Source: Actinomycetes bacterium (GTDB lineage: Bacteria; Actinomycetota; Thermoleophilia; Gaiellales; F1-60-MAGs149). Taken from it: a DNA stretch of 64,000 bases. The stretch covers positions 1,555 through 65,554 of the forward strand of contig JANYCN010000049.1 of NCBI GenBank assembly GCA_025360225.1. Reading direction: 5' to 3'. The notes below the pieces were generated by a model. That model worked only from the letters and a program-made list of their open reading frames with translations. It had not been told where the DNA came from and did not search any database. Shown here piece by piece: positions 6,399-64,000 of this stretch. Position 1 is the first letter of the stretch. Every line of letters begins with the position of its first letter. The translations under genes were made by a program, and so were the position numbers.

Positions 6399-6425
6399 AG
6401 CACGGCGCGTCTCGCGGTCAGACGG

Positions 6426-7361
6426 CTAGGAAGCCGCGAGGCGGAGCAGCACGGCGGCGGCGGTGTGGAGGCGGTTCTCCGCCTGATCGAAGACGGCCGA
6501 TTGCGGGCCCTCGAGCACGGACTCGGTGACCTCCTCGCCGCGGTGGGCGGGGAGGCAGTGCAGGAAGACGGCGTCGGGTCGGGCGAGCGCCATGAGCGCG
6601 TCATCTACCCGGTAGAGGGCGAGGTCGGCGAGCTTCTGCGCGCGGCGATCATCCTCTCCCATCGAGACGAACACGTCGGTGTAGACCGCGCAGGCGCCGG
6701 TGACCGCCGCGACCGGGTCGCCGGTGATCGTGACCGAACCACCGGTACGCAGGGCGACGGCGACGGCGGCCTCGGCGACGGCGGGCAGCGGGCGATATCC
6801 CTCGGGACACGCGACGCGGACGTGCATTCCGGCTAACGCGCAGGCCTCGATCAACGAGTGCGCGACGTTGTTGCCGTCCCCGACGTAGGCGACCTCGAGC
6901 CCCGCGAGCGCGCCGAAACGCTCGCGCACGGTGAGCAGGTCGGCGAGCGCTTGACACGGATGATGGGTGTCGGTGAGCGCGTTGATGACGGGCACGCTCG
7001 ACCAGCGCGCGAACTCCTCAACGTCGGCGTGGGCGTGCGTGCGCACGACGATCGCCGCGGCATAGCGCGAGATCACCCGTGCCGTGTCGCGGATCGGCTC
7101 GCCCCGACCAAGCTGGAGCTGGTCGGCACTCGCGAACACCGGGTGGCCACCAAGCCGTGCGATTGCCGCCTCGAACGAGAGCCGCGTGCGCGTCGACGGC
7201 TTCGTGAAGTGCATCAGGACGGCTCGACCACCGAGCGCGCGATCGTGGAGCGCGCGGTCGGCCTTCAGGTCAGCCGCGGTGTCGAGCATCCCCCCGAGGT
7301 CAGCCGGCGCGAGCCCCGCGAGCGAGAGGAGATGGGACGTCGAGGCGCAGAGCATTCGCAT
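6426..7361 (-). CDS. argF: Ornithine carbamoyltransferase
   Basis: Motifs FTKPSTRTRLSFEAA, HPCQALADL and HCLPAHRGEEV. The track ORF starts at 7409; I prefer ATG 7361 (MRMLCASTSHLLSL), with 7355 also possible. Confidence 0.88.
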   Translation of the reverse strand: MRMLCASTSHLLSLAGLAPADLGGMLDTAADLKADRALHDRALGGRAVLMHFTKPSTRTRLSFEAAIARLGGHPVFASADQLQLGRGEPIRDTARVISRYAAAIVVRTHAHADVEEFARWSSVPVINALTDTHHPCQALADLLTVRERFGALAGLEVAYVGDGNNVAHSLIEACALAGMHVRVACPEGYRPLPAVAEAAVAVALRTGGSVTITGDPVAAVTGACAVYTDVFVSMGEDDRRAQKLADLALYRVDDALMALARPDAVFLHCLPAHRGEEVTESVLEGPQSAVFDQAENRLHTAAAVLLRLAAS

Positions 7362-7370
7362 GAGTATACA

Positions 7371-7394
7371 CAGCTCTGCATAGTCATGCAGCTG
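7371..7394. promoter_or_regulatory. Imperfect palindrome CAGCTCTGCATAGTCATGCAGCTG, a possible ARG-box-like operator upstream of argF
   Basis: Core CTGCATAGTCATGCAG (7376..7391) is a TGCATA/ATGCA inverted repeat 15-30 nt upstream of the argF start, in the divergent argF / 7421 intergenic region. I recall TGCAT-type half sites for actinobacterial ArgR boxes. The assignment is tentative. Confidence 0.3.
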
Positions 7395-7420
7395 TGACAA
7401 CGTGAACATCTCGGTGTACG

Positions 7421-8629
7421 ATGGCGCAGACGGTGTTTGCGAACGGCGCGCTGCGAGGGGTTCACACGACCCGATACGGGGCGTACGAGGCCGCCGTCAT
7501 GGCGACCATCGTCTTCCTCGTGGCCTACGTCACCGGCACCGCGCTCGCTGCACCAGCCACGCTCCTCGTCGCCCTGTTCAACGTTCCGGTCGCGCTCGTA
7601 CCGGTCGGCGCATGGCTCGCGTGGCACACGCTGTCCGGGCGGGACCGGCGAGTCTGGCTCCTTCAGGCGCTCGCGGCGACCTGCTGGACGGTCGGCACGC
7701 TCGTCTGGTACGCCGCGTTCGCAACAGGCGGAGACGTCGCGCCACGCAACCCGGGGATCTGGAACGTGTTCTTCCTCGCCGGTTACGCGCTCGCCGTGGC
7801 CGGGATGCGGGTCGGGCTCGCCTCAGCCACGCGTCTCACCCACGCGGTCGTTGACACCATCGCGATCGCGGCTGCGCTCGTCGCGTTCGGTTCGATGCTC
7901 GTCGAGAAGGCGGATGCGATCGGCTGGACGACGCGCACCTTCGTGGTGCTCGCGCGCCCAGCGTTCGGCCTTCTGATGATCGTGTTGATCCTCTCCGCCC
8001 TCTTCGGCCGCTGGGAGACGGTGCGCCCATCAGTGCTGATCATGGCCCTCGGTCACGTGTTCCTGACGCTCGGTAGCCTCCGCGGCACGCTCGACTTCCT
8101 CGCGAACGACTTCGCCGACGACCACTGGGCGGACGTGTTGTGGGCAGCCGGCGCCGCCTGCTTCCTCGTCGCCACTGCGCGTGTCATCTGCCACCGCGAC
8201 GAGCAGGGGCCGGGACGGATCGCCGCCCGGCCGGGCTCCGCGCTATGGCTCCGTCTGGGCCTGACGCTGCTGTTGTTCGTCGGCGCGGCACAGGTTTACC
8301 GGGTCGCTGACAGGGATGGCGGGACGCAGGTGAGCGCCTACGCGATGACCGTGATGGGAGCCGCGCTCGCGCTACGCGCGGTGTTCGAGCTACGCGAGCA
8401 CCGCACGACGGTCGTCGCGCTCGAACGCGAGCTGTCCGATGCCCGCCAGACGGGAGCCTCCGTGAAGACGCTGCGCGAGCGGAACATGGACCTCCGGCTT
8501 CGGCAGGTGATGATCGACCAGGCCGTTTCCCGCGAGGCCGAGGACCAGCCGGAGGTCCTTGACGGGTTGATGCGCGCCGTCACCGACCTGTTAGAGCGGA
8601 CAAAGGATCCGCGCCAGGACGAGAGCTAG
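7421..8629 (+). CDS. Polytopic membrane protein with a C-terminal coiled-coil tail and no recognisable output domain
   Basis: About 9-10 hydrophobic segments are followed by RAVFELREHRTTVVALERELSDARQTGASVKTLRERNMDLRLRQ. The stop codon TAG 8627..8629 lies at the junction with the repeat element. Confidence 0.7.
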   Translation: MAQTVFANGALRGVHTTRYGAYEAAVMATIVFLVAYVTGTALAAPATLLVALFNVPVALVPVGAWLAWHTLSGRDRRVWLLQALAATCWTVGTLVWYAAFATGGDVAPRNPGIWNVFFLAGYALAVAGMRVGLASATRLTHAVVDTIAIAAALVAFGSMLVEKADAIGWTTRTFVVLARPAFGLLMIVLILSALFGRWETVRPSVLIMALGHVFLTLGSLRGTLDFLANDFADDHWADVLWAAGAACFLVATARVICHRDEQGPGRIAARPGSALWLRLGLTLLLFVGAAQVYRVADRDGGTQVSAYAMTVMGAALALRAVFELREHRTTVVALERELSDARQTGASVKTLRERNMDLRLRQVMIDQAVSREAEDQPEVLDGLMRAVTDLLERTKDPRQDES

Positions 8630-52763: not shown

Positions 52764-54143
52764 CTACAGCCGCCGCGCGTCGAAGACGGCCCGACGCACG
52801 TACTGGCCGTGGCCGGGGCGCGTGCAGATCCTGCCGTCGTCCCACACCACGGTGCCGCGCGACAGGGTCAGGCGCGGCGAGCCTGCGACCTCGCGTCCCT
52901 CGTAGATGTCGTAGTCGACGTTCATGAGGCTCGTCGCGCACGAGAACACGTGTCGCCGCGCCGGGTCGAAGACGACGATGTCGGCGTCAGCACCAGCACC
53001 GATCCACCCCTTGCGCTCGAGGCCGAACATCCTTGCGACGGCGGTCGAGGTGATCTCGACGACGCGGTTCGGGGACAGCCGTCCCGCCCGTACGCCGTGC
53101 TCCCACAACATCGGCAGGCGGTGCTGGATCGCAGCGAGGCCGTTCGGGATCTTCGAGAAGTCACCGAGCCCGAGGCGCTTCTGCTCGTCGTTGAAAGGGC
53201 AGTGGTCGGTGGAGACGATCTGCAGGTGGTCGAGGCGTAGCGCGTCCCACAGGTGCGGCTGGTTCGCGGCATCGCGCAGCGGCGGTGAGCAGACGTAGCG
53301 GGCACCCTCGAAGCCGGGCCGGCGAAGGTCGTCGACGGAGTTGAAGAGGTACTGGATGCACGTCTCGCCGTACGCGCGAGCGCCGGCGGCCCGGGCCCGG
53401 ATGATCTCGTCCGCTGCCGCCTTACAGGAGACGTGGACGACGAACACCGGCGCGCCGGCGAACCCTGCGAGGCGGACTGCGCGACCGGTTGCCTCGGCCT
53501 CCATCGTCTCGGGCCGCGTGAGGGCGTGGTGGATCGGGTCGGTCTGGCCGGCGGCGAGCGCCTTGGAGACGAGGTGCGCGATCGCGTGGCCGTTCTCGCA
53601 GTGCACCATCGTCAACGCCTCGAGGTCTCGAGCACGTTCGAGCACCGCAAGGTACTGATCGTCGGTGACCATCAGGACGTTCGGGTAGGCGAGGAACACC
53701 TTGAAGCTGGTGATCCCCTCGTCAACCATCGACGACATGTCGGCGATCGTCGCGGCGTCGGCGTTCGTGATCGCCATGTGAAACCCGTAGTCGACGTGCG
53801 CGGCGCCCTCCGCCCGCCCCATCCACTCCTCGAGCGACGAGCGCAACCCGCCCCGATGCATCTGGAGCGCGAAGTCGACGATGCACGTCGTCCCGCCGGC
53901 GGCAGCGGCGCGTGTGCCGGTGTCGTAGTCATCCGCGCTCCACGTGCCGCCGAACGGCATCGAGAGGTGGGTGTGGTTGTCGATCGCTCCAGGGAGCACG
54001 AAGCAGCCCGTGGCGTCGATCACCTCAGCGTCGACGCCGTCGAACCGGCCGACGCCGACGACCGTCTCGCCGTCGACCAGCACGTCCGCCGTCGCCGACT
54101 CGGACGCGTTGACCACGGTTCCGCCGCGGATCAGCTTGCGCAT
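52764..54143 (-). CDS. Dihydropyrimidinase / D-hydantoinase
   Basis: Internal ATG 54143 (MRKLIRGGTVVN...) of track ORF 52764..54440. Motifs DNHTHLSMPF, SFKVFLAY (carboxylated Lys), VHCENG. ATGA overlap with the upstream gene. Confidence 0.9.
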   Translation of the reverse strand: MRKLIRGGTVVNASESATADVLVDGETVVGVGRFDGVDAEVIDATGCFVLPGAIDNHTHLSMPFGGTWSADDYDTGTRAAAAGGTTCIVDFALQMHRGGLRSSLEEWMGRAEGAAHVDYGFHMAITNADAATIADMSSMVDEGITSFKVFLAYPNVLMVTDDQYLAVLERARDLEALTMVHCENGHAIAHLVSKALAAGQTDPIHHALTRPETMEAEATGRAVRLAGFAGAPVFVVHVSCKAAADEIIRARAAGARAYGETCIQYLFNSVDDLRRPGFEGARYVCSPPLRDAANQPHLWDALRLDHLQIVSTDHCPFNDEQKRLGLGDFSKIPNGLAAIQHRLPMLWEHGVRAGRLSPNRVVEITSTAVARMFGLERKGWIGAGADADIVVFDPARRHVFSCATSLMNVDYDIYEGREVAGSPRLTLSRGTVVWDDGRICTRPGHGQYVRRAVFDARRL

Positions 54144-55384
54144 CACAGGCTCCCTTCCGCGACCCTGGTGATCGCGTGGCCGACGGTGTTGGCGTACGCA
54201 CGGATCGCCAGCTCGAGGTGCTCGACCGGCGTGTCCTCCTCCTTGGCGTGGCTGATGCCCTTCGTCGAGGACGAGAACACCATCACCGTTGGCACGCGCC
54301 GCGCCATCTCGGCGGCGTCGTGCAGCGGCCCGGACGGCAGCGCGTGATCGCTGCCGGAGACCGCCAGGCAGGCATCCCGCGCCGCAGCGATCAGCTCGTC
54401 GTGAAACGGGATCGGCTCGATCCGCCAGATCGGCTCCCACGTCACGGTGCAGCCCTCCGCGGCGGCGGCCTCTGAGGCAGCGACCCGCGCGTCGGCAAGC
54501 ATCGCGGCGAGAACGTCAGCATCGAGGTGACGCTGGTCGAGCAGGACGGCGGCGACGCCGGCGATCGCGGTCACGACGCCCGGCGTGCAGGCCACGTCGC
54601 CGGTCGTGCAGACACCGCCGTGGCGAACGGCGATGTCGCGCAGCGTGAGAGCGAAGCGGGAGGCGGCGAGGAAGGCGTCACGGCGGTGCGCCATCGGCGT
54701 CGAGCCGGCGTGGGCGGCCTGGCCGCGGAACAGGACGCGGTTTCGCTCGACGCCGACGGTGCCGAGCACCGTGCCGACGGGCAGCGCAAGGCCCTCCAGC
54801 ACCGGCCCCTGCTCGATGTGCAGCTCGATGTAGGCACGCACGTCGGCGAGGCGCGACGTCGCGACGCTCGCTCGGTCGACGTCGACGCCGTGGCGTGCGA
54901 GGACGTCAGCGAGGCGCTCCCCGCCCGCGTCGCGCAGGTCGCGCACCGCCTCGGGATCGAGCGTGCCGCAGACGGCGGATGATCCGAGCAGCGAGCGGCC
55001 GAAGCGGGCGCCCTCCTCGTCAGCCCAGTCGACAAGGCTCACGGTGCAGGGAGGCGTCCCGTCCTCGGCGATCGTCCGCAGCGTCTCGAGCGCCCCCATC
55101 ACGCCGAGCGCGCCGTCGAGCCAGCCGCCGCTCGGCACCGAGTCGAGGTGTGACCCGATCACCACGGTCTCCGGCCGCTCGCCGTCGAGCCGCGCCCAGA
55201 GGTTGCCCGCCTCGTCAACGTCAACGACGACCGGGAGGTCGGCGAGGCGCTCCCGCAGCAGCCCGCGCGCCGCGACCCACTCCTCGCTCCAACACAGACG
55301 CCGCGCCCCGCCCTGACCGCCGGTCAGCTCAGCCAGCGCACGCAGGTCGGCGATCGCGCGGGCCGGCTGGCAGGCGATCTCCAT
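54143..55384 (-). CDS. M20-family N-carbamoyl-amino-acid / beta-ureidopropionase-type amidohydrolase
   Basis: Internal ATG 55384 (MEIACQPARAIADLRALAELTGG...). Reads VVIGSHLDSVPSGGWLDGALGV. ATGA overlap with preA. Confidence 0.85.
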   Translation of the reverse strand: MEIACQPARAIADLRALAELTGGQGGARRLCWSEEWVAARGLLRERLADLPVVVDVDEAGNLWARLDGERPETVVIGSHLDSVPSGGWLDGALGVMGALETLRTIAEDGTPPCTVSLVDWADEEGARFGRSLLGSSAVCGTLDPEAVRDLRDAGGERLADVLARHGVDVDRASVATSRLADVRAYIELHIEQGPVLEGLALPVGTVLGTVGVERNRVLFRGQAAHAGSTPMAHRRDAFLAASRFALTLRDIAVRHGGVCTTGDVACTPGVVTAIAGVAAVLLDQRHLDADVLAAMLADARVAASEAAAAEGCTVTWEPIWRIEPIPFHDELIAAARDACLAVSGSDHALPSGPLHDAAEMARRVPTVMVFSSSTKGISHAKEEDTPVEHLELAIRAYANTVGHAITRVAEGSL

Positions 55385-56661
55385 CAGGCTCGATCCTTCC
55401 ACGTGTTCCCCGACCCGACGGGACGGCCGGTGCGCGCGTCGATCACGCCAACGGCGAGCGGCTCCATCGTGATGCAGTCCGCGATCGGACAGACGAGCGC
55501 ACAGAGGTTGCAGCCGACGCACTCTGACTCGATCACCTCGAACCGTCGCACCCCATCGACCGCGCTCGTGATCGCCTGGTGAGAGGTGTCCTCGCAGGCG
55601 ATGTGGCAGCGCCCGCAGCTGATGCAGAGATCCTGGTTGATCCGGGCCTTCACCGCGTAGTCCAGGTTGAGCCGGTTCCAGTCGGTCACCTTCGGCGTGG
55701 CGAGACCGACCATCGCCGCAACTGAGCCGTACCGACGATCGTCGAGGAAGCCGGAGAGGCCGCTGATCATCTCCTCGACGATCCGGAAGCCGTACACCAT
55801 CGCCGCCGTGCACACCTGGACGGTGCCCGCGCCGAGCGCGATGAACTCCGCGGCGTCCCGCCAGCTCTCGATGCCGCCGATCGCGGAGATCGGCAGGCCA
55901 GCCGTCTCGGGTGAGCGGGCGATCTCGGCCGTCATGTGAAGCGCGATCGGACGCACCGCGGCGCCGCAGTAACCGCCGTGCGTGCCCAGCCCGTCAGTGT
56001 GCGGCGACGGCGCCATCGCGTCGAGGTCGACGCCCATGATCGAGTTGATCGTGTTGATCAGCGAGACGGCGTCCGCGCCTCCCCGTAACGCCGCCTCGGC
56101 TGGCTTGCGGATGTCCGTCACGTTCGGTGTCAGCTTCGCGATAACGGGTAGCCGCGTGTGCGTCTTGCACCAGCGCACCACCATCTCGACGTACTCCGGC
56201 ACCTGGCCGACCGCCGCCCCCATGCCGCGCTCCGACATCCCGTGCGGACAGCCGAAGTTGAGCTCGACGCCGTCCGCGCCGGTCTCCTCGACGAGCCGCA
56301 GGATCCCCGCCCAGCATGGCTCCTCGCACGGCACCATCAGCGACACGACGACCGCGCGATCGGGCCAACGAGCCTTCACGGCGCGGATCTCGTCGAGGTT
56401 GACCTGCAGCGGCCGGTCGGTGATCAGCTCGATGTTATTGAAGCCGATGACGCGCCGGTCAGATGCGTGGATCGCGCCGTAGCGGGGGCCGGACACGTTC
56501 ACGACGGGCGGGTCCTCACCGAGCGTCTTCCAGACGACACCACCCCAACCGGCCTGGAACGCCCGCTCGACGTTGTACGCCTTGTCGGTAGGCGGCGCCG
56601 ACGCGAGCCAGAACGGGTTCGGCGAGCGGATGCCGGCGAAGGTCGTCGCGAGGTCAGCCAC
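55384..56661 (-). CDS. preA: Dihydropyrimidine dehydrogenase subunit PreA (DHOD-like TIM barrel plus 2x[4Fe-4S])
   Basis: ADLATTFAGIRSPNPFWLASAPP..., C-terminal CISCGRCHIACED and CVGCNLCALVCP. GTG 56661 overlaps the preT stop (GTGGCTGA). Confidence 0.88.
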   Translation of the reverse strand: MADLATTFAGIRSPNPFWLASAPPTDKAYNVERAFQAGWGGVVWKTLGEDPPVVNVSGPRYGAIHASDRRVIGFNNIELITDRPLQVNLDEIRAVKARWPDRAVVVSLMVPCEEPCWAGILRLVEETGADGVELNFGCPHGMSERGMGAAVGQVPEYVEMVVRWCKTHTRLPVIAKLTPNVTDIRKPAEAALRGGADAVSLINTINSIMGVDLDAMAPSPHTDGLGTHGGYCGAAVRPIALHMTAEIARSPETAGLPISAIGGIESWRDAAEFIALGAGTVQVCTAAMVYGFRIVEEMISGLSGFLDDRRYGSVAAMVGLATPKVTDWNRLNLDYAVKARINQDLCISCGRCHIACEDTSHQAITSAVDGVRRFEVIESECVGCNLCALVCPIADCITMEPLAVGVIDARTGRPVGSGNTWKDRA

Positions 56662-57964
56662 CGGACGCCTCCCGCAACGCCCGATCGATCGAGGCAGCAG
56701 CACGCTTGCCGTCCTCGACGGCGGTGACGGTGAGGTCGTCGCCGCCGGCGACGCAGTCACCGCCAGCCCAGACGCCGGGACGCGACGTGCGCCGCTCCTC
56801 GTCGACGACGATCCGACCGCTCACGATCGCCAGCGGCGCCACCTCGTCGGCGACGATCGCCTGGCCGATCGCGCGAAAGAGCTGGTCACAGGGGAGCGTC
56901 AGGCGTTCGCCGGTGGCCGGCCGCTCCACCTCCAGCGCCACCACCCTCCCACCCTCGGCGATCACCCGTCGCGGCACAACGCCGGTGCGGATCAGCACGC
57001 CGTCGGTCTGCGCGAGACGCTGCTCGTACGGGCTCGCGCCCATCTGCGCCGCCGCACGCCGGTAGGCGATCGTGACCTCCTCGGCACCGAGGCGGCGTGC
57101 CTGGCTCGCGACGTCGATCGCGGTCATGCCGCCGCCGATCACGACGACGCGGCGTCCGATCGGGATCGCCGCGAGATCGCTCGCCTGTCGGATGTCGGCG
57201 ATCAACGAGACGCCATCGACGACCCCGTCGAGGGCATCCTCGATACCGAGACGGTTGACGGTGTCAAGCCCGACCGCGAGGAAGACCGCGTCGTGCGTGG
57301 CGGCAAGCTCGTCGATCGTCAGACCGGCTCCGAGCCGCCGGCCGTGCACGACGTTGATCCCGCCAACGCCGAGCACGAACGCGACCTCGCGTTGCGCAAA
57401 CCCGTCAACCGTCTTGTAGGCGGCGATGCCGTACTCGTTGAGCCCCCCGAGCTTGGGCCGCGCCTCGTAGATCGTGACGGCATGCCCGGCGACGGCAAGC
57501 GCGTGCGCGCAGGCGAGGCCGGCCGGGCCGGCGCCGACGACGGCGACCGAGCGGCCCGTCGACGGACCCTGCCGGTATGGCTGGATACCGCTCTCCATCA
57601 GCCTGTCGGTCGCGTGGCGCTGCAGGCGCCCGATCTCGATCGGCCTCTCCTCAGCCGCCCGCACGCAGGCCTGCTCGCAGAGCGTCTCGGTCGGACAGAC
57701 GCGGGCACACATGCCGCCGAGGATGTTGCTGTCGAGGATCGTCCGAGCCGCGCCCTCGACGTTCGCCGTGGCGATCTGTCGCACGAACAGCGGGATGTCG
57801 ATCGACGTCGGGCACGCCGTCACGCAGGGCGCGTCGAAGCAGAACAGGCAGCGCTCCGCGGCGATCCGCGCCTCGTTCGGCGCAAGCGGCGGACGGAGGT
57901 CAGCGAAGCCCGCCGCGAGAGCACCGGCAGCGAGCCGGCGAGACGCGATGTCGGGAGTCGCCAC
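56654..57964 (-). CDS. preT: Dihydropyrimidine dehydrogenase subunit PreT (GltD-like NAD(P)H oxidoreductase)
   Basis: CLFCFDAPCVTACPTSIDIP, VAVVGAGPAGLACAH, VVVIGGGMTAID. Confidence 0.88.
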   Translation of the reverse strand: MATPDIASRRLAAGALAAGFADLRPPLAPNEARIAAERCLFCFDAPCVTACPTSIDIPLFVRQIATANVEGAARTILDSNILGGMCARVCPTETLCEQACVRAAEERPIEIGRLQRHATDRLMESGIQPYRQGPSTGRSVAVVGAGPAGLACAHALAVAGHAVTIYEARPKLGGLNEYGIAAYKTVDGFAQREVAFVLGVGGINVVHGRRLGAGLTIDELAATHDAVFLAVGLDTVNRLGIEDALDGVVDGVSLIADIRQASDLAAIPIGRRVVVIGGGMTAIDVASQARRLGAEEVTIAYRRAAAQMGASPYEQRLAQTDGVLIRTGVVPRRVIAEGGRVVALEVERPATGERLTLPCDQLFRAIGQAIVADEVAPLAIVSGRIVVDEERRTSRPGVWAGGDCVAGGDDLTVTAVEDGKRAAASIDRALREASGG

Positions 57965-57967
57965 CGA

Positions 57968-58858
57968 TCAGCCCCCCTGAAACCCCGGCGTCGGCGGATC
58001 GTCGCCGGCCTGCTCGCGCAGGAAGCGCTGGATCTCGGAGGCGAGCTCGTCACCGCTCGGGATCCGCTCCTCCACCTCCTCGTGCTCCTCCTGCTCACCC
58101 ATCGACTCGAGGCGGTGCACCATCTCGCGCGTGTCCGAGTCGTTCGAGACGGCGGCGTCGTAGCCTGCGAGCTCGCGGCGCGACGTCTGCTCGAGGTCGG
58201 CGTCGGACAGGTCGATCTCGAGGTGCGTGCTGAGTCGTTCGAGGAGCGCAACGCTCGCCACCGCGTAGCCTGAACCAGCGTACGGCGGGACCTGCGCGAA
58301 GTACCCGACGGCTGGCGTGCCCGCCTCGACGACGGCCATCTCAAACGCCGACAGCGCTGCCGCCGGCACCCGTAGCACCCCGCTCGGCCCCCGAACCTCG
58401 CCGTGGCGGAGCAGGCCGTCACGAGAGGCGGTCGACATGATCGGCACCCGGCGGGTGTGCGCGACGGCGGCGGGCACCGCGCCGAGGCTGACCCACTGTG
58501 ACACGCCGAGGCGTCGCACGAGACCGACGATGTCGAGCGCGAGCGATTGCCAGCGCGCGTCGGGCTCCGCGCCGACCAGGAACAGCAGGTCGCGCCCGCC
58601 AATCCGCACGTGTCGTAGCACGAGCTCCGGCCAGGAAAGCCGTGTCAACGCACCGTCGACGACGTCGAGGACGGGGCGCCGGGAGCGATAGTCAAACACC
58701 GCGTCGCCGTCGAAGCGCACGATCACCGACCCGCGACGGGCAATTCGATCAGCGGCGCCAGACGCCGCACCGGCAGCGTCAACCCACCCGTCAAGCGCGG
58801 CGATCAGCACGGGGTCAGCCAGTTCCGGGATTTCCGTCTCAATCTGGTGTAGCGGCAC
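57968..58858 (-). CDS. PAC2 family protein, paralog 2
   Basis: DPVLIAALDGWVDAAGAAS..., RGPSGVL, acidic tail ending IPSGDELASEIQRFLREQ. Its stop is 3 nt from the preT start. Confidence 0.8.
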   Translation of the reverse strand: MPLHQIETEIPELADPVLIAALDGWVDAAGAASGAADRIARRGSVIVRFDGDAVFDYRSRRPVLDVVDGALTRLSWPELVLRHVRIGGRDLLFLVGAEPDARWQSLALDIVGLVRRLGVSQWVSLGAVPAAVAHTRRVPIMSTASRDGLLRHGEVRGPSGVLRVPAAALSAFEMAVVEAGTPAVGYFAQVPPYAGSGYAVASVALLERLSTHLEIDLSDADLEQTSRRELAGYDAAVSNDSDTREMVHRLESMGEQEEHEEVEERIPSGDELASEIQRFLREQAGDDPPTPGFQGG

Positions 58859-58973: not shown

Positions 58974-59633
58974 ATGCTCGAGGATGGCCTGTCCCGGGTG
59001 GAGGAGGGCCCGCCGGCGCTAGAGGTGGGACAGACGATCGCGGTCGAGAACCCCCTCACGGGGCAGAGCTTTCGCGGTGCGGTCTTGTCGGCAACGGACG
59101 AGGCGCTCGTCATCCGCGTCCCCGACCCGGGACGTGAACGAGGTGGGTTTGGGCTACGCCGCCTCGACGACGAGGGAGCGGCGTGGTACGCCGAGACGGC
59201 GGGCGAGTACTCCCGTGCGGCAGAGACGCTGACGCTGCACGCGCCGGGGATGTGGGAGCTCGACGCGTCCCGTCGATCGGCACGCGTGCCGGCGGCGCGC
59301 CTGCCCGTGCACGTCGAGACGTTCCCGCCGAGCGTCGTCCGCCGCGAGCTGTCAGGGATCGACATCTCCGCGAGCGGCCTCGGCGCGACCGGGCGCGGAC
59401 AGGCGCTGTCGATCGGAACGCCGGTGCGCATCACCGTCCGCGATGGCTACGGAGCGGTCGGCTGGATCCACGCCGTGGTGGCGCGCACGGCACCACGGTC
59501 CTATGACCTGTTCGACGTCGGGCTGCGCTTCACCCCCGAGTCACCCGCCGAGCAGGAGCTCATCTTCCAGTGGCGGGACCGAGCCGCGCAGACCTCCGCG
59601 ACGGCTCCGGCAGCTACGAACCGGGCCGGCTAA
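58974..59633 (+). CDS. PilZ-domain protein (YcgR-like two-barrel layout)
   Basis: c-di-GMP-binding motifs RRSARV (RxxxR) and DISASG (DxSxxG) with the expected spacing. GGAGG RBS upstream. Confidence 0.8.
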   Translation: MLEDGLSRVEEGPPALEVGQTIAVENPLTGQSFRGAVLSATDEALVIRVPDPGRERGGFGLRRLDDEGAAWYAETAGEYSRAAETLTLHAPGMWELDASRRSARVPAARLPVHVETFPPSVVRRELSGIDISASGLGATGRGQALSIGTPVRITVRDGYGAVGWIHAVVARTAPRSYDLFDVGLRFTPESPAEQELIFQWRDRAAQTSATAPAATNRAG

Positions 59634-59692
59634 CCCCGCAACCAACGCGGAAGGCGAGCCATGCCCGGGACGGCGCCGGGCATACTGCGCGG

Positions 59693-62434
59693 GTGCGACC
59701 AGCGATTCGCCTCGCCCTGCTCGCCGTGCTTGCGGTGCTCGCCCTGCCGAGCGCTGGTTCGGCGTCGGAGCCACCCAACCACAACGACCCTTGCGCACAC
59801 ACGGGCCGCAACGTGTGCGCCACGGCCGGTGTTGGCTACTACAAGACGTACCGCTACGGCCTGCGCTGGTTCGGCGACTTCCGCGGTGTCGGGACGGCCG
59901 ACCGGCACCTGTACTGCATCGACCTGCGCTACTGGTATCCCGCCTCGTCGTTCCACTACACCGAGGCGACGGGCGGTGTGCTGCGCAACCGCGACGGGAA
60001 GGTCGTGTCGCTCGCGGCGCAGGCGCAGATCTCGTACGCGATCTTCACCTACGGCCAGACGACGAACGCCGACCAGGCGGCAGCGGTGATGCTGTACGTG
60101 CACGCGATGATCGGCGACGGACGCCCCGGCGAGACCGACCCGACCGGCCTGGGCCCGCGGGTGACACGGTTGTACCGCCGCATCGCTCGCGATGCGGCGC
60201 GCCTGCGCGGACCGTACACCGTGCGCACGCACGTGACCGGAGGCGGCGTCGTCGGAGGAACGGGCGACGTCCAGGTCGAGGTGATCTCCGCGACTGGCGC
60301 CCGCGTTCCCGGCGTGACGATCGCGATCGCCTCTCAGGGCGCGTCGGGCGTGCCGACGTCGGTACGCACCGACGCACGTGGCCTCGGTCACGTGCCGTTC
60401 CGGTTGACGACGACTGGCGGCTTCCACCTGACGTTGCGCACTGCGCGGCTCGCCGCTCCCCAGCCGCGGATCCTCGCACCGTCGACGAACGCCGCCGTTG
60501 CAAACGCCCAGCGTCTTGCGGCGCCGGACGGCGCACAGGCAGCGGCTGACGTGCGCGTCGGTGCCGCCCCCGCCCAGATCCAAGCGATGACCTCCGCCAC
60601 GCCGAGCTCGCTGCAGGTAGGCGGAACGAGCACGGAGCACGTGACGATCACCGGCGCCCTGCCGACGTGGAGCGCCACCGTCAGCGCACGACTGTACGGG
60701 CCATTCGCGACGCAGGACGCGCTCGACTGCTCCGGTACGCCGTTCGCTCAGGTCTCCTTCCCGGCGACCGGAGCACAGACCGCCTACGACGCACCCGCCG
60801 TTACCGTCACGACCCCGGGCTGGTACACGTGGATCGACGAGGTTCCCGGCGACGCGAACGATACGGGTCTGACGACCGACTGCAAGGTCCCGGCGGAGAG
60901 CTTCCACGTCGACGTCACGCCGGCGCTATCAACGACGGTGAGCGCCCCGCGGGTCGCGCCAGGGGCGGCGATCCATGACACCATCGTCGTCAGCGGCCTT
61001 GCCGGGCTGTCGGCGACGGTGCACGCGGCGCTGTATGGGCCGTTCTCGTCGCCTGCGACGATCGCGTGTGACGGCACCCCGGCATGGCAGGGAAGCGTCA
61101 GCGCCACCGGTGACGGGACGTACCAGACGGAGACCTACCCGCTGACCGTTGCCGGGTACTACACGTACCGCGAGTGGATCGAGGCGAGCGGCCTCGTGCA
61201 CGCCGCGCAGACGACCTGCGGCGACGTCGCCGAGACGGTCGTCGCCGTGGCGCACGCGGCGATCTCGACGCAGGTGAGCGCCGCGCAGGCCGCGCCCGGA
61301 ACGCCGCTGACGGACGCTGTCCAGATCGGCGCGCTCGGCGCGATCAGCGTCCAGGTCACCGTCGACCTCTACGGCCCGTACGCGTCTGCCGCCGCCGTCG
61401 ACTGCTCGGGGACGCCGGCCTCGACGAGCACGATCGCCGCCCTGCACGACGGCACGTACGTGTCGACGGCGACGCGCCCGCTGGTCGCCGGCTACTACGC
61501 GTTCCGCGAGTCGGTCGCGCAAGGACCGGCGAACGATGCGGTGCAGACGCCGTGCGCGGAGCCCGGCGAGACGGCGTACATCCACGCGTCGCCGACGATC
61601 AGCACGACGGCGAGCCCGGACGTCGTGCGGGTCGGTGCTGCCGTCAGCGACGACATCCTCGTGCGCGGCCTCGGACGGACGCCGGCGACGATCGACGTGG
61701 CCCTCTACGGGCCGTTCGCTGCCCGCGCGGCGATCGACTGCACCGGCACCCCGGTGTTCGCGCGCACGATCGCCGTCACCGGCGACGGACTCGTGCACTC
61801 GCCCTCAGCCCGCGTGGCGCACATCGGCTTCTACGCGTGGACGGAGCACCTGCGGGGAACCGCTTTGGTGAGCGACACGACGACGACCTGCGGCCTCGTC
61901 GACGAGACGACGTTCGGTGTCGCGGGCATCTCCACCGGACGTGGCGACGTCGCGATCGAGACGCGAGCGCGCCATCGCAGCTCGATGGAGCCCGTGCGCG
62001 TTCGGATCGCCCGGCCAGGCGTCGACGCCCCGGTCGTGCCGGTCGGGCTCGACATGGCCCACGGTCTGCTCGGTGTGCCGTCGAACGTGCGGCGAACCGG
62101 CTGGTGGACGGACGGCGCGCTCCCGGGATCGAGATCCGGGGCGATCCTGATCGGCGGCCACGTCGACAGCGCCGCCGCCGGGCCCGGCGCTTTCGCCCCG
62201 CTCTCCTACGCGCGCAGCGGCGACATCGTCCAGGTCACGACGGCGTCCGGGAGGGTGCTGCGCTACCGCGTCACGAGCGTGCGATCCTACCCGAAACCGA
62301 AGCTGCCGACGAGCGTCTGGTCGCTCCGAGGCCCGGCCCGTCTGGTCCTCGTAACGTGCGGTGGACGGTTCGATACGACGACGCATCACTACCTCGATAA
62401 CATCGTGGTGACGGCGGTGCCCATCACTCGATGA
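59693..62434 (+). CDS. Secreted multidomain protein: signal peptide/anchor, thioester-domain-like head, four Ig-like repeats, C-terminal class F sortase catalytic domain
   Basis: GTG 59693 within track ORF 59570..62434. VRPAIRLALLAVLAVLALPSAGSA; HLYCIDLRYWYP; four repeats with LYGP[FY]..[DA]C.GTP; C-terminal 149 aa RIARPGVDAPVVPVGLD...GWWTDGALPG...ILIGGHVD...LVLVTCGGRFD. Confidence 0.8.
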   Translation: MRPAIRLALLAVLAVLALPSAGSASEPPNHNDPCAHTGRNVCATAGVGYYKTYRYGLRWFGDFRGVGTADRHLYCIDLRYWYPASSFHYTEATGGVLRNRDGKVVSLAAQAQISYAIFTYGQTTNADQAAAVMLYVHAMIGDGRPGETDPTGLGPRVTRLYRRIARDAARLRGPYTVRTHVTGGGVVGGTGDVQVEVISATGARVPGVTIAIASQGASGVPTSVRTDARGLGHVPFRLTTTGGFHLTLRTARLAAPQPRILAPSTNAAVANAQRLAAPDGAQAAADVRVGAAPAQIQAMTSATPSSLQVGGTSTEHVTITGALPTWSATVSARLYGPFATQDALDCSGTPFAQVSFPATGAQTAYDAPAVTVTTPGWYTWIDEVPGDANDTGLTTDCKVPAESFHVDVTPALSTTVSAPRVAPGAAIHDTIVVSGLAGLSATVHAALYGPFSSPATIACDGTPAWQGSVSATGDGTYQTETYPLTVAGYYTYREWIEASGLVHAAQTTCGDVAETVVAVAHAAISTQVSAAQAAPGTPLTDAVQIGALGAISVQVTVDLYGPYASAAAVDCSGTPASTSTIAALHDGTYVSTATRPLVAGYYAFRESVAQGPANDAVQTPCAEPGETAYIHASPTISTTASPDVVRVGAAVSDDILVRGLGRTPATIDVALYGPFAARAAIDCTGTPVFARTIAVTGDGLVHSPSARVAHIGFYAWTEHLRGTALVSDTTTTCGLVDETTFGVAGISTGRGDVAIETRARHRSSMEPVRVRIARPGVDAPVVPVGLDMAHGLLGVPSNVRRTGWWTDGALPGSRSGAILIGGHVDSAAAGPGAFAPLSYARSGDIVQVTTASGRVLRYRVTSVRSYPKPKLPTSVWSLRGPARLVLVTCGGRFDTTTHHYLDNIVVTAVPITR

Positions 62435-64000
62435 CAGCCACGCGTACGACGTTCGCCGGCTTTGGCGGCCTCGAGAAGGGGATCTGGTACGCGCTCACCT
62501 TCCTCTCGACGGCGGTCTTCCTGGTCGGGTTCGTGCGGCTCGTCCGACGCTACCGGGTACGTCGCGCCACCGCCGGCCCTGTCGACGTCCGGCGCATGCT
62601 CGTGGTCGTCCTCACCCACTCCTGGATCCGCCGGCGAGACGGCGTTGCCGGACTTGCGCACGCCGGCGTGTTCTACGGGTTCCTGGTGCTGCTCGCCGGG
62701 ACGACGATCCTCGCGATCCAGGACGACGTCCTGAAGCCGACGACCGGCTGGGAGTTCTGGCGCGGATCGTTCTACGAGGGCTACTCGCTGTTCCTCGACG
62801 TGTTCGGCGCGGCGATGCTGATCGGCCTCGTCGTGTTCGCGCTCCGGCGCTTCCAGGGGCGGATCGCACGCCTCGACTACGCGCGACGGGACGATCGCCC
62901 GGTCTCGGCAAAGCGGGCTCGCTACCAGCTCGACGACTGGGTGTTCCTCTGGTCGCTGCTCTACCTTGGCCTCACCGGCTTCCTGCTCGAGTCGCTCCGG
63001 ATCGCCGTCAACCGTCCGTCGTTTGAGGTCTGGTCGCCGGTCGGCTGGGTGATCGGGAACGGGCTGCGGAGCCTCGGCGTGGATGGCTCCAGCGCCGACG
63101 CGGCGCGGGCCGGGCTGTGGTGGTCGCACGGCCTCGTCGCGCTCGCGTTCGTCGCTGCGATCCCGTTCACGAAGGCGATGCACATGCTGACAGGGCCGGC
63201 TGGTGTCGCCCTGCGCTCCCCCACCGTCGGTCGCGAGCTGGTCGCCGAACCAGAGACCGGGTACGCGACCCTTGCTGACCTGACGACGCACCACCTCGTC
63301 GACCTCGACGCGTGCACGAAGTGCGGCAAGTGCCACGAGGCGTGCCCGGCCGGGATCGGCGGCATGCCGCTCTCACCGCGCGACCTGATCCTCGACCTGC
63401 GCGAGGCGTCCTCGCTCGGCGTCACGACCGCTCTCGTCCCCGACGTGATCGCGCCCGAGACGCTCTGGTCGTGCATGCAGTGCATGGCGTGCGTCGACAT
63501 CTGCCCCGTCGGGATCGAGCACGTCCCGGTGATCAACCTGCTGCGCCGTGGGCTCGTGGAACGGGGCGAGCTGGACGAGCAGCTGCAGGGCACGTTCGAG
63601 GCGGTGTTCACGAGCGGCAACAGCTTCGGCGAGGCGAAGCGCAAGCGTGCGCGATGGGCGAAGGAGCTCGCGGTCGAGGTGCGCGACGCGCGCGCCGAGG
63701 CCGTCGACGTGCTCTGGTTCGTCGGCGACTACGCGTCGTTCGATCCGCGCAACCAGCGCAACACTGCTGCCCTTGCGCAGCTGCTGACGCACGCGGGCGT
63801 CAGCTTCGGGATCCTCTTCGAGGCCGAGAAGACGGCTGGCAACGACGTCAGACGGGCCGGTGAGGAGGGTCTCTTCCGCAGCCTCGCGGAGGAGAACATC
63901 GCGACGATCGCCGGCTGTGACTACCAGCGGATCCTCACGAGCGACCCGCACTCGTTCAACACGCTGCGCAACGAGTACCCCGGCCTCGGGGCGCCGTGGA
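62431..64000 (+). CDS. Membrane-bound Fe-S protein (N-terminal polytopic domain fused to an HdrD/DsrK/GlpC-like 2x[4Fe-4S] domain); 3' end beyond the window
   Basis: My own translation gives MTATRTTFAGFGGLEKGIWYALTFLSTAVFLVGF..., about 5 TM segments, then CTKCGKCHEACPAG and CMQCMACVDICPVGIEH. ATG 62431 overlaps the upstream stop (ATGA). It runs off the window, so it is absent from the ORF track. Confidence 0.8.
   Translation, partial: MTATRTTFAGFGGLEKGIWYALTFLSTAVFLVGFVRLVRRYRVRRATAGPVDVRRMLVVVLTHSWIRRRDGVAGLAHAGVFYGFLVLLAGTTILAIQDDVLKPTTGWEFWRGSFYEGYSLFLDVFGAAMLIGLVVFALRRFQGRIARLDYARRDDRPVSAKRARYQLDDWVFLWSLLYLGLTGFLLESLRIAVNRPSFEVWSPVGWVIGNGLRSLGVDGSSADAARAGLWWSHGLVALAFVAAIPFTKAMHMLTGPAGVALRSPTVGRELVAEPETGYATLADLTTHHLVDLDACTKCGKCHEACPAGIGGMPLSPRDLILDLREASSLGVTTALVPDVIAPETLWSCMQCMACVDICPVGIEHVPVINLLRRGLVERGELDEQLQGTFEAVFTSGNSFGEAKRKRARWAKELAVEVRDARAEAVDVLWFVGDYASFDPRNQRNTAALAQLLTHAGVSFGILFEAEKTAGNDVRRAGEEGLFRSLAEENIATIAGCDYQRILTSDPHSFNTLRNEYPGLGAPW

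Follow-up and report, generated by a model that had tools for sequence, protein, structure and literature searches.

The window analyzed here is a 64,000-nucleotide stretch of contig JANYCN010000049.1 from an actinobacterium of the class Thermoleophilia, and toward its right end one forward-strand gene (59693..62434) encodes a protein of 913 amino acids, counted from a GTG at 59693. The reading frame is free of stops from 59570 to 62434 and holds 954 codons from its first in-frame GTG. The start at 59693 is backed by the N termini of family members, and the NCBI gene call (P0001, 902 amino acids) differs solely in starting 11 codons downstream; ORF count and family N termini thus bear out the original prediction of an uninterrupted frame of 913 codons. 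The chain runs from a cleavable signal peptide through a head of about 270 residues, four Ig-like repeats of about 112 residues, and a tether of about 18 residues to a C-terminal sortase domain (Table 1). We are fairly confident of the domain identities, namely, that the head is thioester-like, the stalk Ig-like, and the C terminus a sortase. A sortase enzyme sits where adhesins of the TIE type normally carry the tag for a separate sortase.

Table 1. Parts of the 913-residue protein and their positions in the window
Feature	Residues	Window position	Strand	Basis or remark
Sec signal peptide	1-24	59693..59764	+	predicted cleavage between AGSA and SEPP
Head, upper lobe	25-175	59765..60217	+	conservation, AF2 secondary structure
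Head, seven-stranded beta-sandwich	176-262	60218..60478	+	inserted after third helix; Big_1-like
Head, return segment	263-295	60479..60577	+	short helix, G-Q-R-L-A, beta-hairpin 274-277 + 284-289
Stalk repeat 1 (Cys346/Cys397)	297-408	60581..60916	+	Ig-like; repeat alignment, beta-rich AF2 model
Stalk repeat 2 (Cys459/Cys509)	409-521	60917..61255	+	repeat alignment, AF2
Stalk repeat 3 (Cys571/Cys621)	522-633	61256..61591	+	repeat alignment, AF2
Stalk repeat 4 (Cys683/Cys733)	634-745	61592..61927	+	repeat alignment, AF2
Tether	746-766	61928..61990	+	starts I-x-T748-G749-R-G-D, then ~14 variable residues
Sortase-fold transpeptidase domain	767-913	61991..62431	+	Pfam PF04203, NCBIfam class F, conservation

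The architecture recurs throughout one bacterial class. A database search found more than 386 homologous proteins, of which the best 120 are all about 900 to 986 amino acids long and align over their full length at 45 to 52% identity; counts out of 120 below refer to this family alignment, in which every Cys of the 913-residue protein is invariant. At least 586 species-level genomes carry the architecture in genome stretches confirmed by tblastn, and all are Thermoleophilia wherever the title states a class, order, family, or genus. Independent assemblies by the hundred, and a number of isolate genomes, carry it without interruption at 40 to 52% identity over the full length. Cultured carriers include Patulibacter, Paraconexibacter, and Svornostia, and complete carrier genomes include CP088295 and CP114014. 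Full-length homologs likewise bear out the predicted union of adhesin-like head, Ig-like stalk, and sortase in one conserved chain. We conclude that the architecture is real and, as its conservation indicates, under selection. The carriers are soil actinobacteria, and conservation of the fusion protein is class wide. The original prediction had allowed for an already common and characterized family: the architecture is common within Thermoleophilia, yet it is uncharacterized. As had been supposed, the literature searched contained no description of a head-stalk-sortase fusion, and such a chain seems to have gone undescribed and untested so far.

The worry that an adhesin gene and a sortase gene were joined by frameshift or misassembly can be set aside. 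The same architecture is present in hundreds of assemblies and in isolates, the junction residues are conserved, and the AlphaFold (AF2) model of the whole chain has a mean pLDDT of 91. We reject such an artifact as having a negligible chance of being correct.

The protein carries a secretion signal, and none of the surface anchors looked for was found. The end of the signal peptide is conserved family wide as AxA followed by (A/G)EPPNxNDPC, and all family N termini shown have an n/h/c pattern with AxA directly before EPPNxNDPC; in the AF2 model, the region has a pLDDT below 65. The signal peptide lacks a lipobox Cys, and there is no second hydrophobic segment, the sole hydrophobic 19-mer of the protein being the N-terminal signal itself. 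No L[PA]xTG motif occurs anywhere in the 913 residues. The C terminus has no LPXTG, membrane segment, or charged tail, and the sortase domain stands in that place; the scan agrees with the earlier claim that neither LPXTG nor a C-terminal transmembrane segment is present.

How the head is built bears on its chemistry, and the head-only AF2 model is confident (pLDDT, 94.9; pTM, 0.91). The upper lobe carries HLYCIDLRYWYP and, as originally described, the Cys75 codon (TGC, 59915..59917), AAQAQISYAIF (residues 108 to 118), and DQAAAVMLYVH (residues 127 to 137). It comprises three helices (107-121, 126-140, and 150-171 by AF2) and small beta strands; the one at 73-76 bears the invariant lone Cys75 in YCID together with Asp77 and Pro83. 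Cys75 and Asp77 are each present in 120/120 sequences within the motif Y/F-C75-I-D77, and Cys75 is present in 63/65 of a genome set. The lobe also has an invariant Cys pair, Cys34 and Cys42, and Cys75 is the only Cys of the head to lack a pairing partner in an exported protein. Equally invariant is His137 (60101..60103; 120/120) within H-x3-G-D, and Asp142 and Glu147 each occur in 119/120 sequences of the head alignment. The beta-sandwich, which the original prediction overlooked as part of the head, has AF2 strands at 176-183, 190-198, 209-215, 223-225, 231-238, 244-250, and 259-262; Pfam Big_1 matches it weakly in 22/32 members (best E, 2e-8), and the family profile also matches an intimin there. 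The return segment (pLDDT, 95 to 97 in the head-only model) contains Gln273-Arg274 (60509..60514) in the motif [GA]-Q273-R-L-[AV], both residues being conserved in 120/120 sequences and in 65/65 of the genome set, and Gln273 lies 198 residues after Cys75.

The head resembles a Class II thioester domain (TED) in fold and topology. In TEDs, beta-strand C bears the bond-forming Cys within the motif [YFL]C-hydrophobic-hydrophilic, and the bond-forming Gln of Class II TEDs follows a beta-sandwich insert in a Phi-Q-zeta-Phi-Phi pattern, with Cys-to-Gln spacings of 195, 171, and 204 amino acids in the solved structures (PMC6194298). YCID, on AF2 strand 73-76, fits the canonical Cys motif, and Gln273 fits the Gln pattern at a spacing within the 171 to 204 amino acids of solved Class II TEDs, the agreement of Gln273 being one of motif, position, and conservation only. 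The order of elements in the AF2 model, from Cys strand through three helices and seven-stranded sandwich to returning hairpin, is that described for Class II TEDs (PMC6194298), and the sandwich occupies the position of the insert that defines the class. Among 350,542 PDB chains, the best Foldseek match for the head was the Class II TED 6fwy (E, 5.8e-6; 308 columns; TM, 0.35); the other matches listed cover the Ig-like part only, and no further solved TED was among the best 50. Moreover, the TED of TIEpLS20 has an essential Cys68 in YCID, a tetrapeptide identical to that around Cys75, and a modeled Gln in Y-Q-R-L, against G-Q-R-L at Gln273. The Cys, the Asp at +2, the Pro at +8, and H-x3-G-D are invariant or nearly so in the head family and invariant in six aligned sequences of the TIEpLS20 family, and the Cys, His, and Asp columns of the two families coincide in three MAFFT modes, motif matches that were noticed after the fact.

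Sequence-based tests of TED membership failed. Pfam TED (PF08341) and TED_2 (PF20610) matched 0/32 members at E values up to 10, hhalign of the head against the TIEpLS20 family aligned only YCID and not significantly (E, 0.037; reversed control, 0.15), and the HMM of the head family gave genuine TEDs scores no higher than those of shuffled decoys. We note that the TIEpLS20 TED itself barely passes Pfam (28.8 versus 27 and 23.5 versus 22 bits) and, as a phmmer query, retrieves no solved TED. The thioester-like head of the original prediction therefore keeps the fold match to 6fwy and the Cys75 motif and is left without backing from HMMs. Its choice of Gln did not survive. The partner originally proposed for Cys75 was a Gln in a motif like TQxA[IV]W, but Gln110 is conserved in 73/120 sequences (61%) and Gln128 in 86/120 (72%; genome set, 32/65). 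In TEDs, the Gln of TQxxPhiW is not the bond former (PMC6194298); the candidate is instead the invariant Gln273, about 200 residues downstream. TQxxPhiW adjoins the thioester from helix 2 and is conserved, not essential, in TEDs (PMC6194298). Helix 2 of the head reads [DN]-Q-[AQ]-A-A-V-M, without that motif and with Val132/Met133 at the Trp position, and aligns with NQDAEVW of TIEpLS20 in the joint alignment. On balance, we somewhat favor a real internal thioester between Cys75 and Gln273.

Alternatively, the head might not be a TED at all, and Cys75, His137, and Asp142/Glu147 might form a Cys-His(-acid) catalytic or metal site, as in a hydrolase, a transglutaminase-like enzyme, or a Cu/Zn site, such that the likeness to TEDs reduces to a shared beta-sandwich plus helices. 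The near-complete conservation of those residues, the failed membership tests, and a Foldseek TM of 0.35 with one TED entry among the best 50 matches all speak for such a site. The invariant Gln273-Arg274 after the sandwich, however, would go unexplained, and the TIEpLS20 family, whose Class II TED has functional support, likewise keeps H-x3-G-D invariant; the head His is therefore compatible with a TED. Moreover, Cys75 lies at a strand end and His137 in a helix of the AF2 model, which is not the arrangement of papain or transglutaminase, and no hydrolase fold was among the PDB matches listed. We consider a catalytic or metal site improbable.

The stalk (residues 297 to 745; 60581..61927) consists of four mutually alignable repeats that have in common LYGPF, C.GTP, GDG.Y, GYY.Y.E, and a second Cys. 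Internal alignment agrees with the predicted number of Ig-like repeats and with their Cys pairs, all four of which are conserved in 120/120 sequences; repeat 1 is missing from family members of about 800 amino acids. No Lys is conserved in any repeat, nor any Gln or His; isopeptide domains (CnaA/CnaB) have a conserved Lys with Asn/Asp and a catalytic Glu/Asp, and ester-bond domains have Thr and Gln with His/Asp/Glu. Pfam SpaA and Cna_B matched none of 32 members, and weak matches were to Big_1, MG4, Filamin, and DUF7406. Of the Pfam matches expected at the outset, PF04203 was found at the C terminus, but TED, TED_2, SpaA, and Cna_B were not found upstream of it.

The tether opens with an invariant Thr-Gly. 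Thr748 and Gly749 (61934..61939) are each present in 120/120 sequences, and the pair is present in 64/65 of the genome set; Arg750, Gly751, and Asp752 follow in 111, 105, and 101 of the 120, respectively. Beyond GRGD, sequence entropy is high, and the tether measures 16 to 21 amino acids (mode, 18) with an AF2 pLDDT of 70 to 83. The site reads [LEQ]-I-x-T-G, with Ile at the place taken by Pro or Ala in most of the sortase motifs described. P-x-[IV]-x-T, without the Gly, also stands at the three other repeat junctions, and conservation of Thr748 is thus explained in part as the start of a repeat A-strand.

The C-terminal domain is a sortase by Pfam, with PF04203 matching residues 771 to 910 (56.2 bits; cutoff, 26.6) and 32/32 members. 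Its class is less certain than the original prediction of a clear class F enzyme. NCBIfam class_F_sortase (NF033748) was the best class (112.4 bits; E, 1.5e-32), but the score falls below the curated cutoff of 166, and therefore the word clear was too strong; class F is the best-scoring class only, and Leu occupies the usual Arg position. His823 (62159..62161) and Cys889 (62357..62359; LVLVTCGG) are conserved in 120/120 and 65/65 sequences, and alignments by phmmer with solved sortases of classes A and C cover both the His and the TLxTC Cys (E, ~0.02). Sortases have a His-Cys-Arg triad with the catalytic Arg on strand beta8 (PMC8225981). Residue 901, equated with this Arg by its spacing from the Cys, is Arg in 107/120 sequences and not in the other 13, and this copy has Leu901 (62393..62395) together with Arg892 (62366..62368). 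Arg892 occurs in four of five Leu901 sequences, all four sequences with Arg892 having Leu901, and Lys898 occurs in six of seven Val901 sequences; a basic residue is thus relocated where Arg901 is lost (Fisher P, 1.5e-10, uncorrected for phylogeny). The beta6/beta7-loop residues Lys868 (62294..62296), Leu871, Pro872, Ser877, and Gly880 are strongly conserved, the first three being invariant. With His and Cys invariant and a basic residue relocated, the domain is, as far as sequence can tell, catalytically competent.

What the sortase acts on may lie elsewhere. The protein could be a stalked, multi-turnover sortase that works in trans on sorting-signal proteins encoded elsewhere in the genome, with the N-terminal module in place of a membrane anchor: either the head would attach the enzyme by a covalent bond to the wall or outer layer of its own cell, or the signal peptide would escape cleavage, with the stalk determining how far out the enzyme works. 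Head and stalk do sit where ordinary class F sortases have an N-terminal anchor and a linker before the catalytic domain, the conserved active-site and beta6/beta7-loop residues are expected for a fixed external motif, and class-wide distribution fits a housekeeping role. The statement in the original prediction that class F sortases are small proteins with an N-terminal anchor holds for the described enzymes, at 184 to 273 amino acids, but a 792-amino-acid class E sortase with a long extension at its N terminus has been described (PMC13251363) and lends the stalked enzyme a parallel. No sorting-signal protein was found in about 1.1 Mb of flanks, a small sample, and substrates of housekeeping sortases are normally dispersed, so that missing neighbors are no argument against it. 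The signal peptides, however, look cleavable (short h-region, AxA), the invariant Gly749 and the R-G-D that open the variable tether are left unexplained, and a TED that binds its own cell wall is without precedent in the TED literature examined. We regard a stalked sortase acting in trans as possible but unlikely.

Our best explanation, offered tentatively, is a secreted, three-part covalent surface protein in which the sortase stands in for the sorting signal. The signal peptide would be cleaved, and the N terminus would fold as a Class II TED-like head in which the lone Cys75 and Gln273, the latter delivered by the segment returning from the sandwich, would form an internal thioester, a warhead that reacts with a target amine like that of TIE adhesins. 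Below it would stand a stalk of Ig-like domains, between three and five in number and four in this copy, each stapled by one disulfide in place of the isopeptide or ester bonds found in Firmicute stalks. Cys889, working within its own chain or across to a neighboring copy, would then attack the Thr748-Gly749 bond to form a thioacyl intermediate from which head and stalk may be passed to a cell wall amine. The end state would be like that of a sortase-anchored TIE adhesin, the sortase domain having been released.

That the sortase acts once on its own Thr748-Gly749, puts the stalk on peptidoglycan, and frees itself is a doubtful but specific form of this proposal. In its favor, the invariant Thr-Gly opens a tether whose length is restricted and whose sequence otherwise varies, which suggests a cleavage site. 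The protein also looks self-contained: there is no other anchor, each flanking gene family is confined to at most 9 of the 68 loci, the flanks examined contain no sorting-signal proteins, and the neighborhood of the gene is free of class C sortase and pilin genes. Against self-sorting are the Ile in the motif, the partial origin of Thr748 in the repeats, the missing Arg901 of this copy, and a class F score below the cutoff. We know of no precedent for a single-turnover sortase. If self-sorting is correct, the protein would amount to a Gram-positive equivalent of an autotransporter or a Hedgehog-type autoprocessing domain and would give a class-F-like sortase its first physiological role; class F sortases in general have no physiological role assigned (PMC13251363).

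A released protein could also serve as a two-ended covalent cross-linker, the head binding one surface and the sortase capturing an LPXTG-type protein or wall amine on another, and might join cells or matrix without self-cleavage. The thioacyl intermediate of a sortase is prone to hydrolysis, which makes it unsuited as a stable link, and the invariant Thr-Gly would have no explanation. While the secretion signal without any anchor, the potential covalent chemistry at each end of a rigid rod, and the ability of TED adhesins such as TIEpLS20 to mediate cell-cell contact (PMC8092201) all agree with a cross-linker, we think one very improbable.

The preferred reading, in which the sortase replaces the sorting signal, is best measured against known surface proteins. 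TIE adhesins consist of a signal peptide, an N-terminal TED, a repeated Ig-like stalk, and a C-terminal LPXTG sorting signal (PMC4450167), and the present protein has the first three parts. Like the TIE adhesins with a Class II TED (BaTIE/6FWV, SaTIE, EfmTIE86/6FWY, and TIEpLS20), it has a three-helix bundle, a seven-stranded insert of about 75 to 90 residues, and a hairpin with a conserved Gln 171 to 204 residues after the Cys. Unlike them, it shows no detectable similarity to their sequences with Pfam, hhalign, or HMM, replaces the Trp of TQxxPhiW, has one disulfide per stalk domain with neither isopeptide Lys nor an ester Thr/Gln/His set, ends in a sortase domain rather than LPXTG, and belongs to free-living Thermoleophilia, not to Firmicutes or host-associated bacteria. 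With class F sortases (NCBIfam NF033748, Cutibacterium acnes SrtF, and the SrtF paralogs of Streptomyces and Actinoplanes), it shares a Pfam sortase match above threshold, the invariant His and TLxTC-type Cys, and hosts among Actinomycetota; it differs in its 913 residues, its cleavable signal, the lack of an N-terminal membrane anchor, the roughly 740 residues before the domain, and an Arg that is not fixed, the basic residue being relocated. Hedgehog/Hint domains and autotransporter self-cleavage are analogies for the self-sorting form only: there, too, a C-terminal domain would cleave its own chain once via a (thio)ester and pass cargo to an acceptor, but the Hedgehog/Hint fold and chemistry are unrelated, and the analogy rests entirely on the putative Thr748-Gly749 cleavage. 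Finally, sortase-assembled pilins and CnaB/SpaA stalks differ in having an isopeptide triad and a sorting signal, but they resemble the protein in their tandem beta-sandwich rod with a tip adhesin and a strand motif like G-Y-Y-x-Y-x-E, and the invariant Lys868, in Y-[LP]-K of the sortase domain, recalls the pilin YPK motif.

The protein of 913 residues is built from parts of known kinds, an adhesin head and stalk of the TIE type (Gram-positive adhesins with a thioester domain, or TED, as head) and a sortase, and what is new is their fusion into one chain that lacks a sorting signal. The reading frame is uninterrupted as originally predicted (59570 to 62434, + strand, with residues counted from the GTG at 59693), and the features listed for it were all found in place, including the Cys codon of the head and two Gln-containing stretches. 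The four repeats are mutually alignable units of about 112 residues, and the C-terminal domain matches the sortase family PF04203 of Pfam (56.2 bits; cutoff, 26.6). Moreover, an L[PA]xTG motif and a C-terminal transmembrane segment are indeed absent, and the N-terminal signal is the sole hydrophobic segment. We conclude that the gene product is secreted, that its head is TED-like and its stalk disulfide stapled, that a conserved Thr-Gly opens the tether and that the sortase active site is intact. The N termini of the family (M-R-x...) support the GTG as the start codon, and the stretch before it shows no strong Shine-Dalgarno motif. In the public annotation the identical protein (P0001, 902 residues) begins 11 codons farther downstream, at a start that would strip the signal peptide of its charged n-region.

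The same architecture recurs in homologous proteins and genome loci, and thus we reject a frameshift or misassembly as its source. The protein database holds more than 386 relatives, and the best 120 of these are all about 900 to 986 residues long, cover the whole query and are 45 to 52% identical to it. When one genome per species was scanned, at least 586 loci were confirmed, and wherever the record title goes below phylum the lineage is Thermoleophilia, with Gaiellales, Miltoncostaeaceae and Solirubrobacterales among the loci listed. Cultured carriers include Patulibacter defluvii, P. medicamentivorans, P. brassicae, Svornostia abyssi and a Paraconexibacter sp. Source annotations call the members just "sortase," "sortase domain-containing" or "hypothetical." The occurrence across Thermoleophilia is also new, and our literature search found no paper joining "thioester domain" with "sortase domain" or "sortase" with "Thermoleophilia."

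The head probably has a TED-type fold. AlphaFold2 modeled the full-length chain with confidence (mean pLDDT of 91, from the alignment of 120 sequences), and residues 25 to 295 modeled alone reached a pLDDT of 94.9 and a pTM of 0.91, which indicates that the head is predicted to form one compact unit. When the head was compared with 350,542 PDB chains by Foldseek, the top match was 6fwy, the thioester domain of E. faecium TIE86 (E value of 5.8e-6, probability of 1.0, 308 aligned columns, TM of about 0.35), and the remaining matches listed covered Ig-like domains only. The full-length model, used as the fold query, matched only generic multi-Ig proteins such as macroglobulins and mastigonemes. 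In TEDs the bond-forming Cys sits on strand C in [YFL]C-hydrophobic-hydrophilic; Class II is defined by a seven-stranded sandwich of about 75 residues after helix 3, from which a returning hairpin delivers the Gln, and its Cys/Gln pairs are 71/266, 296/467 and 88/292 (PMC6194298). The family fits each described point, with YCID, [GA]-Q-R-L-[AV], an insert in the corresponding place and a Cys-Gln spacing of 198, in motif matches that were noticed post hoc. In the conjugation adhesin TIEpLS20 the essential Cys likewise lies in YCID, and the modeled Gln is Gln256 (PMC8092201); in its gene this Gln falls within Y-Q-R-L. Both families share the Cys, Asp at +2, Pro at +8 and H-x3-G-D, and when they were aligned jointly in three MAFFT modes, the Cys, His and Asp columns coincided and the QRL motifs were no more than about six columns apart.

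Sequence statistics do not support homology of the head to TEDs. HMM support for a thioester-like head did not materialize: neither Pfam nor NCBIfam gave a TED match on the protein, and Pfam gave none in 32 family members at E values up to 10. Neither phmmer nor the family profile retrieved a TED from the PDB, and hhalign against the profile of the TIEpLS20 family (local, global and suboptimal) aligned YCID alone at an E value of 0.037, with 0.15 for the reversed control. Real TEDs scored no higher than shuffled decoys with an HMM of the head, and a homologue search intended to widen the TED profile yielded mostly near-identical sequences. TEDs are notoriously divergent, however, and TIEpLS20 itself barely passes Pfam and retrieves no solved TED by phmmer; thus, the missing sequence match is weak counterevidence. 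When the head alone was run exhaustively by phmmer against 1.84 billion cluster representatives, only 141 matched, virtually all of them members of the same family or fragments of it, and no other architecture carrying the head was confirmed among them (one, P0254, is frameshift ridden).

All Cys residues are invariant in the 120 sequences, namely C34/C42 and the lone C75 in the head, one pair per repeat and C889 in the sortase, as are D77, P83, H137, Q273 and R274. The original prediction had proposed Q110 or Q128 as the thioester partner, a role that we reject for both, as they are conserved in 73 (61%) and 86 (72%) of the 120 sequences, respectively, and in TEDs the Gln of TQxxPhiW does not form the bond (PMC6194298). 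We lean, if only slightly, toward a real thioester between C75 and Q273. H137 is equally invariant, and C75 might instead belong to a Cys-His catalytic or metal site, an unlikely reading that would assign no role to Q273.

The stalk is new in being disulfide based. The repeats contain no conserved Lys and no conserved Gln/His set, and we therefore reject cross-linking by isopeptide or ester bonds as in the adhesin stalks of Firmicutes; judged from the sequences, each domain of the stalk seems to be held by a single disulfide. Its length is modular, as family forms of about 800 residues lack exactly repeat 1. These shorter forms occur in Svornostia, Paraconexibacter and Baekduia and in two Gaiella sp. 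MAGs, and a relative of 1,038 residues (P0146) probably has five repeats. At one of about 80 loci (L012), a paralogue of 487 residues lies directly downstream of the family gene and consists of four stalk-type repeats behind a signal peptide, without head, sortase or sorting signal, ending two residues short of the position of the P-x-I-x-T-G junction. As a candidate sortase substrate it was rejected because it lacks a sorting signal and is confined to that locus.

The sortase domain is regarded as catalytically competent. H823 and C889 are invariant, and in the presumed beta6/beta7 region so are K868, L871, P872 and G880, with S877 in 117 of 120. Position 901, where the catalytic Arg is expected (Cys +12), is Arg in 107 of 120 sequences and Leu in the window copy, which has an Arg nine residues earlier in TCGGRFD. 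All four sequences with R892, the window copy included, have Leu901, and six of seven with Val901 have Lys898, an association with a Fisher P value of 1.5e-10, uncorrected for shared ancestry. It looks as if the needed positive charge was moved rather than lost by decay, and thus we reject a pseudoenzyme. The domain had been called clearly class F, and class F is indeed the best-matching NCBIfam class, but at 112 bits it falls below the cutoff of 166. Solved sortases are distant relatives only (E value of about 0.02). The invariant Lys868 lies in Y-[LP]-K, just before L871-P872, and the tripeptide recalls the YPK nucleophile motif of pilins.

What the sortase acts on may be written in the junction before it. 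The last repeat ends in P-x-I-x-T748-G749-R-G-D, in which T748 and G749 are invariant (120/120 best database proteins and 64/65 of the genome set) and the R, G and D that follow are 84 to 92% conserved. About 14 variable residues then lead to the first sortase strand, and G749 and P767 are 16 to 21 residues apart in the close family (mode of 18). P-x-[IV]-x-T also starts repeats 2 to 4, and thus Thr748 is partly structural in origin, but the invariant Gly and R-G-D are found at this junction alone, in a register two residues off the others. We tentatively propose that the sortase stands in for the missing sorting signal: it would cleave Thr748-Gly749 of its own or a neighboring chain, head and stalk would be transferred to a wall amine, and the end state would match that of a canonical sortase-anchored TIE adhesin. 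Described sortase motifs, however, mostly have Pro or Ala where this site has Ile, and we know of nothing like a single-turnover sortase. The main rival, also possible yet doubtful, is a multiturnover sortase on a stalk, with the head as a covalent anchor replacing the usual membrane anchor. A released two-ended cross-linker is quite improbable. These readings, the Cys-His site included, are not all mutually exclusive.

Every description known to us treats sortase and substrate as two separate proteins, a membrane-anchored enzyme and a cargo that ends in LPXTG. A family found class-wide, with a TIE-adhesin-like cargo and a sortase in one secreted chain, challenges that picture, whichever mechanism applies. 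TED-containing proteins almost always end in LPXTG (PMC4450167), and a class E sortase of 792 residues exists, so that long sortases are not unprecedented (PMC13251363). The physiological roles of class F sortases are still unknown (PMC13251363), and the family offers a concrete, testable handle on class F-type enzymes, with experiments made feasible by the cultured Patulibacter, Svornostia and Paraconexibacter. TED adhesins would reach the Thermoleophilia, abundant but little-studied soil bacteria, in a version with a disulfide stalk instead of isopeptide or ester bonds. Two orthogonal covalent chemistries in one polypeptide, thioester to amine and sortase transpeptidation, could also appeal to protein engineers.

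Positions of the family gene, its features and its neighbors (window coordinates unless another locus or residues are named)
Feature	Position	Strand
Family gene	59693..62434	+
Start of public gene call P0001	59726
Codon of C75	59915..59917
Y-P-K (aa 866-868)	62288..62296
Arg, aa 892	62366..62368
Leu, aa 901	62393..62395
Head, small strands, including the strand with C75	residues 73-76 (that strand)
Head, three helices	residues 107-121, 126-140, 150-171
Head, seven-stranded sandwich	residues 176-262
Head, short helix, then Q273, then hairpin	residues 274-277 + 284-289 (hairpin)
Family gene at L012	5842..8667
Stalk-type paralogue at L012	8719..10182	+
Family gene, about 800-aa form (loci L075, L076, L078, L079, L081, L082)	about 6001..8400
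Pyrimidine-catabolism-like set	54143..57964	-
M20 amidohydrolase	54143..55813	-
PreA-like DHO_dh + 4Fe-4S protein	55384..56760	-
PreT-like Fer4_20/pyridine-nucleotide-disulphide oxidoreductase	56654..57964	-
PAC2-family gene	57968..58858
PilZ-domain gene	58974..59633	+
Membrane-bound Fe-S/CCG-domain oxidoreductase	62440..64000	+

The gene neighborhood is not conserved. No flanking family occurs in more than 9 of 68 loci, the neighbors on three other contigs are unrelated, and no adjacent substrate or conserved partner gene was found in the flanks of the loci examined. In the window, a PilZ gene precedes the family gene and an Fe-S/CCG oxidoreductase gene follows it. The former, of the c-di-GMP receptor type, ends 60 nt before the GTG on the same strand and is not conserved as a neighbor elsewhere; the latter is heterodisulfide reductase-like, begins just past the stop codon of the family gene and extends beyond the end of the window. 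Farther upstream, three adjoining genes resemble a reductive pyrimidine-catabolism set, and a PAC2-family gene lies near them.
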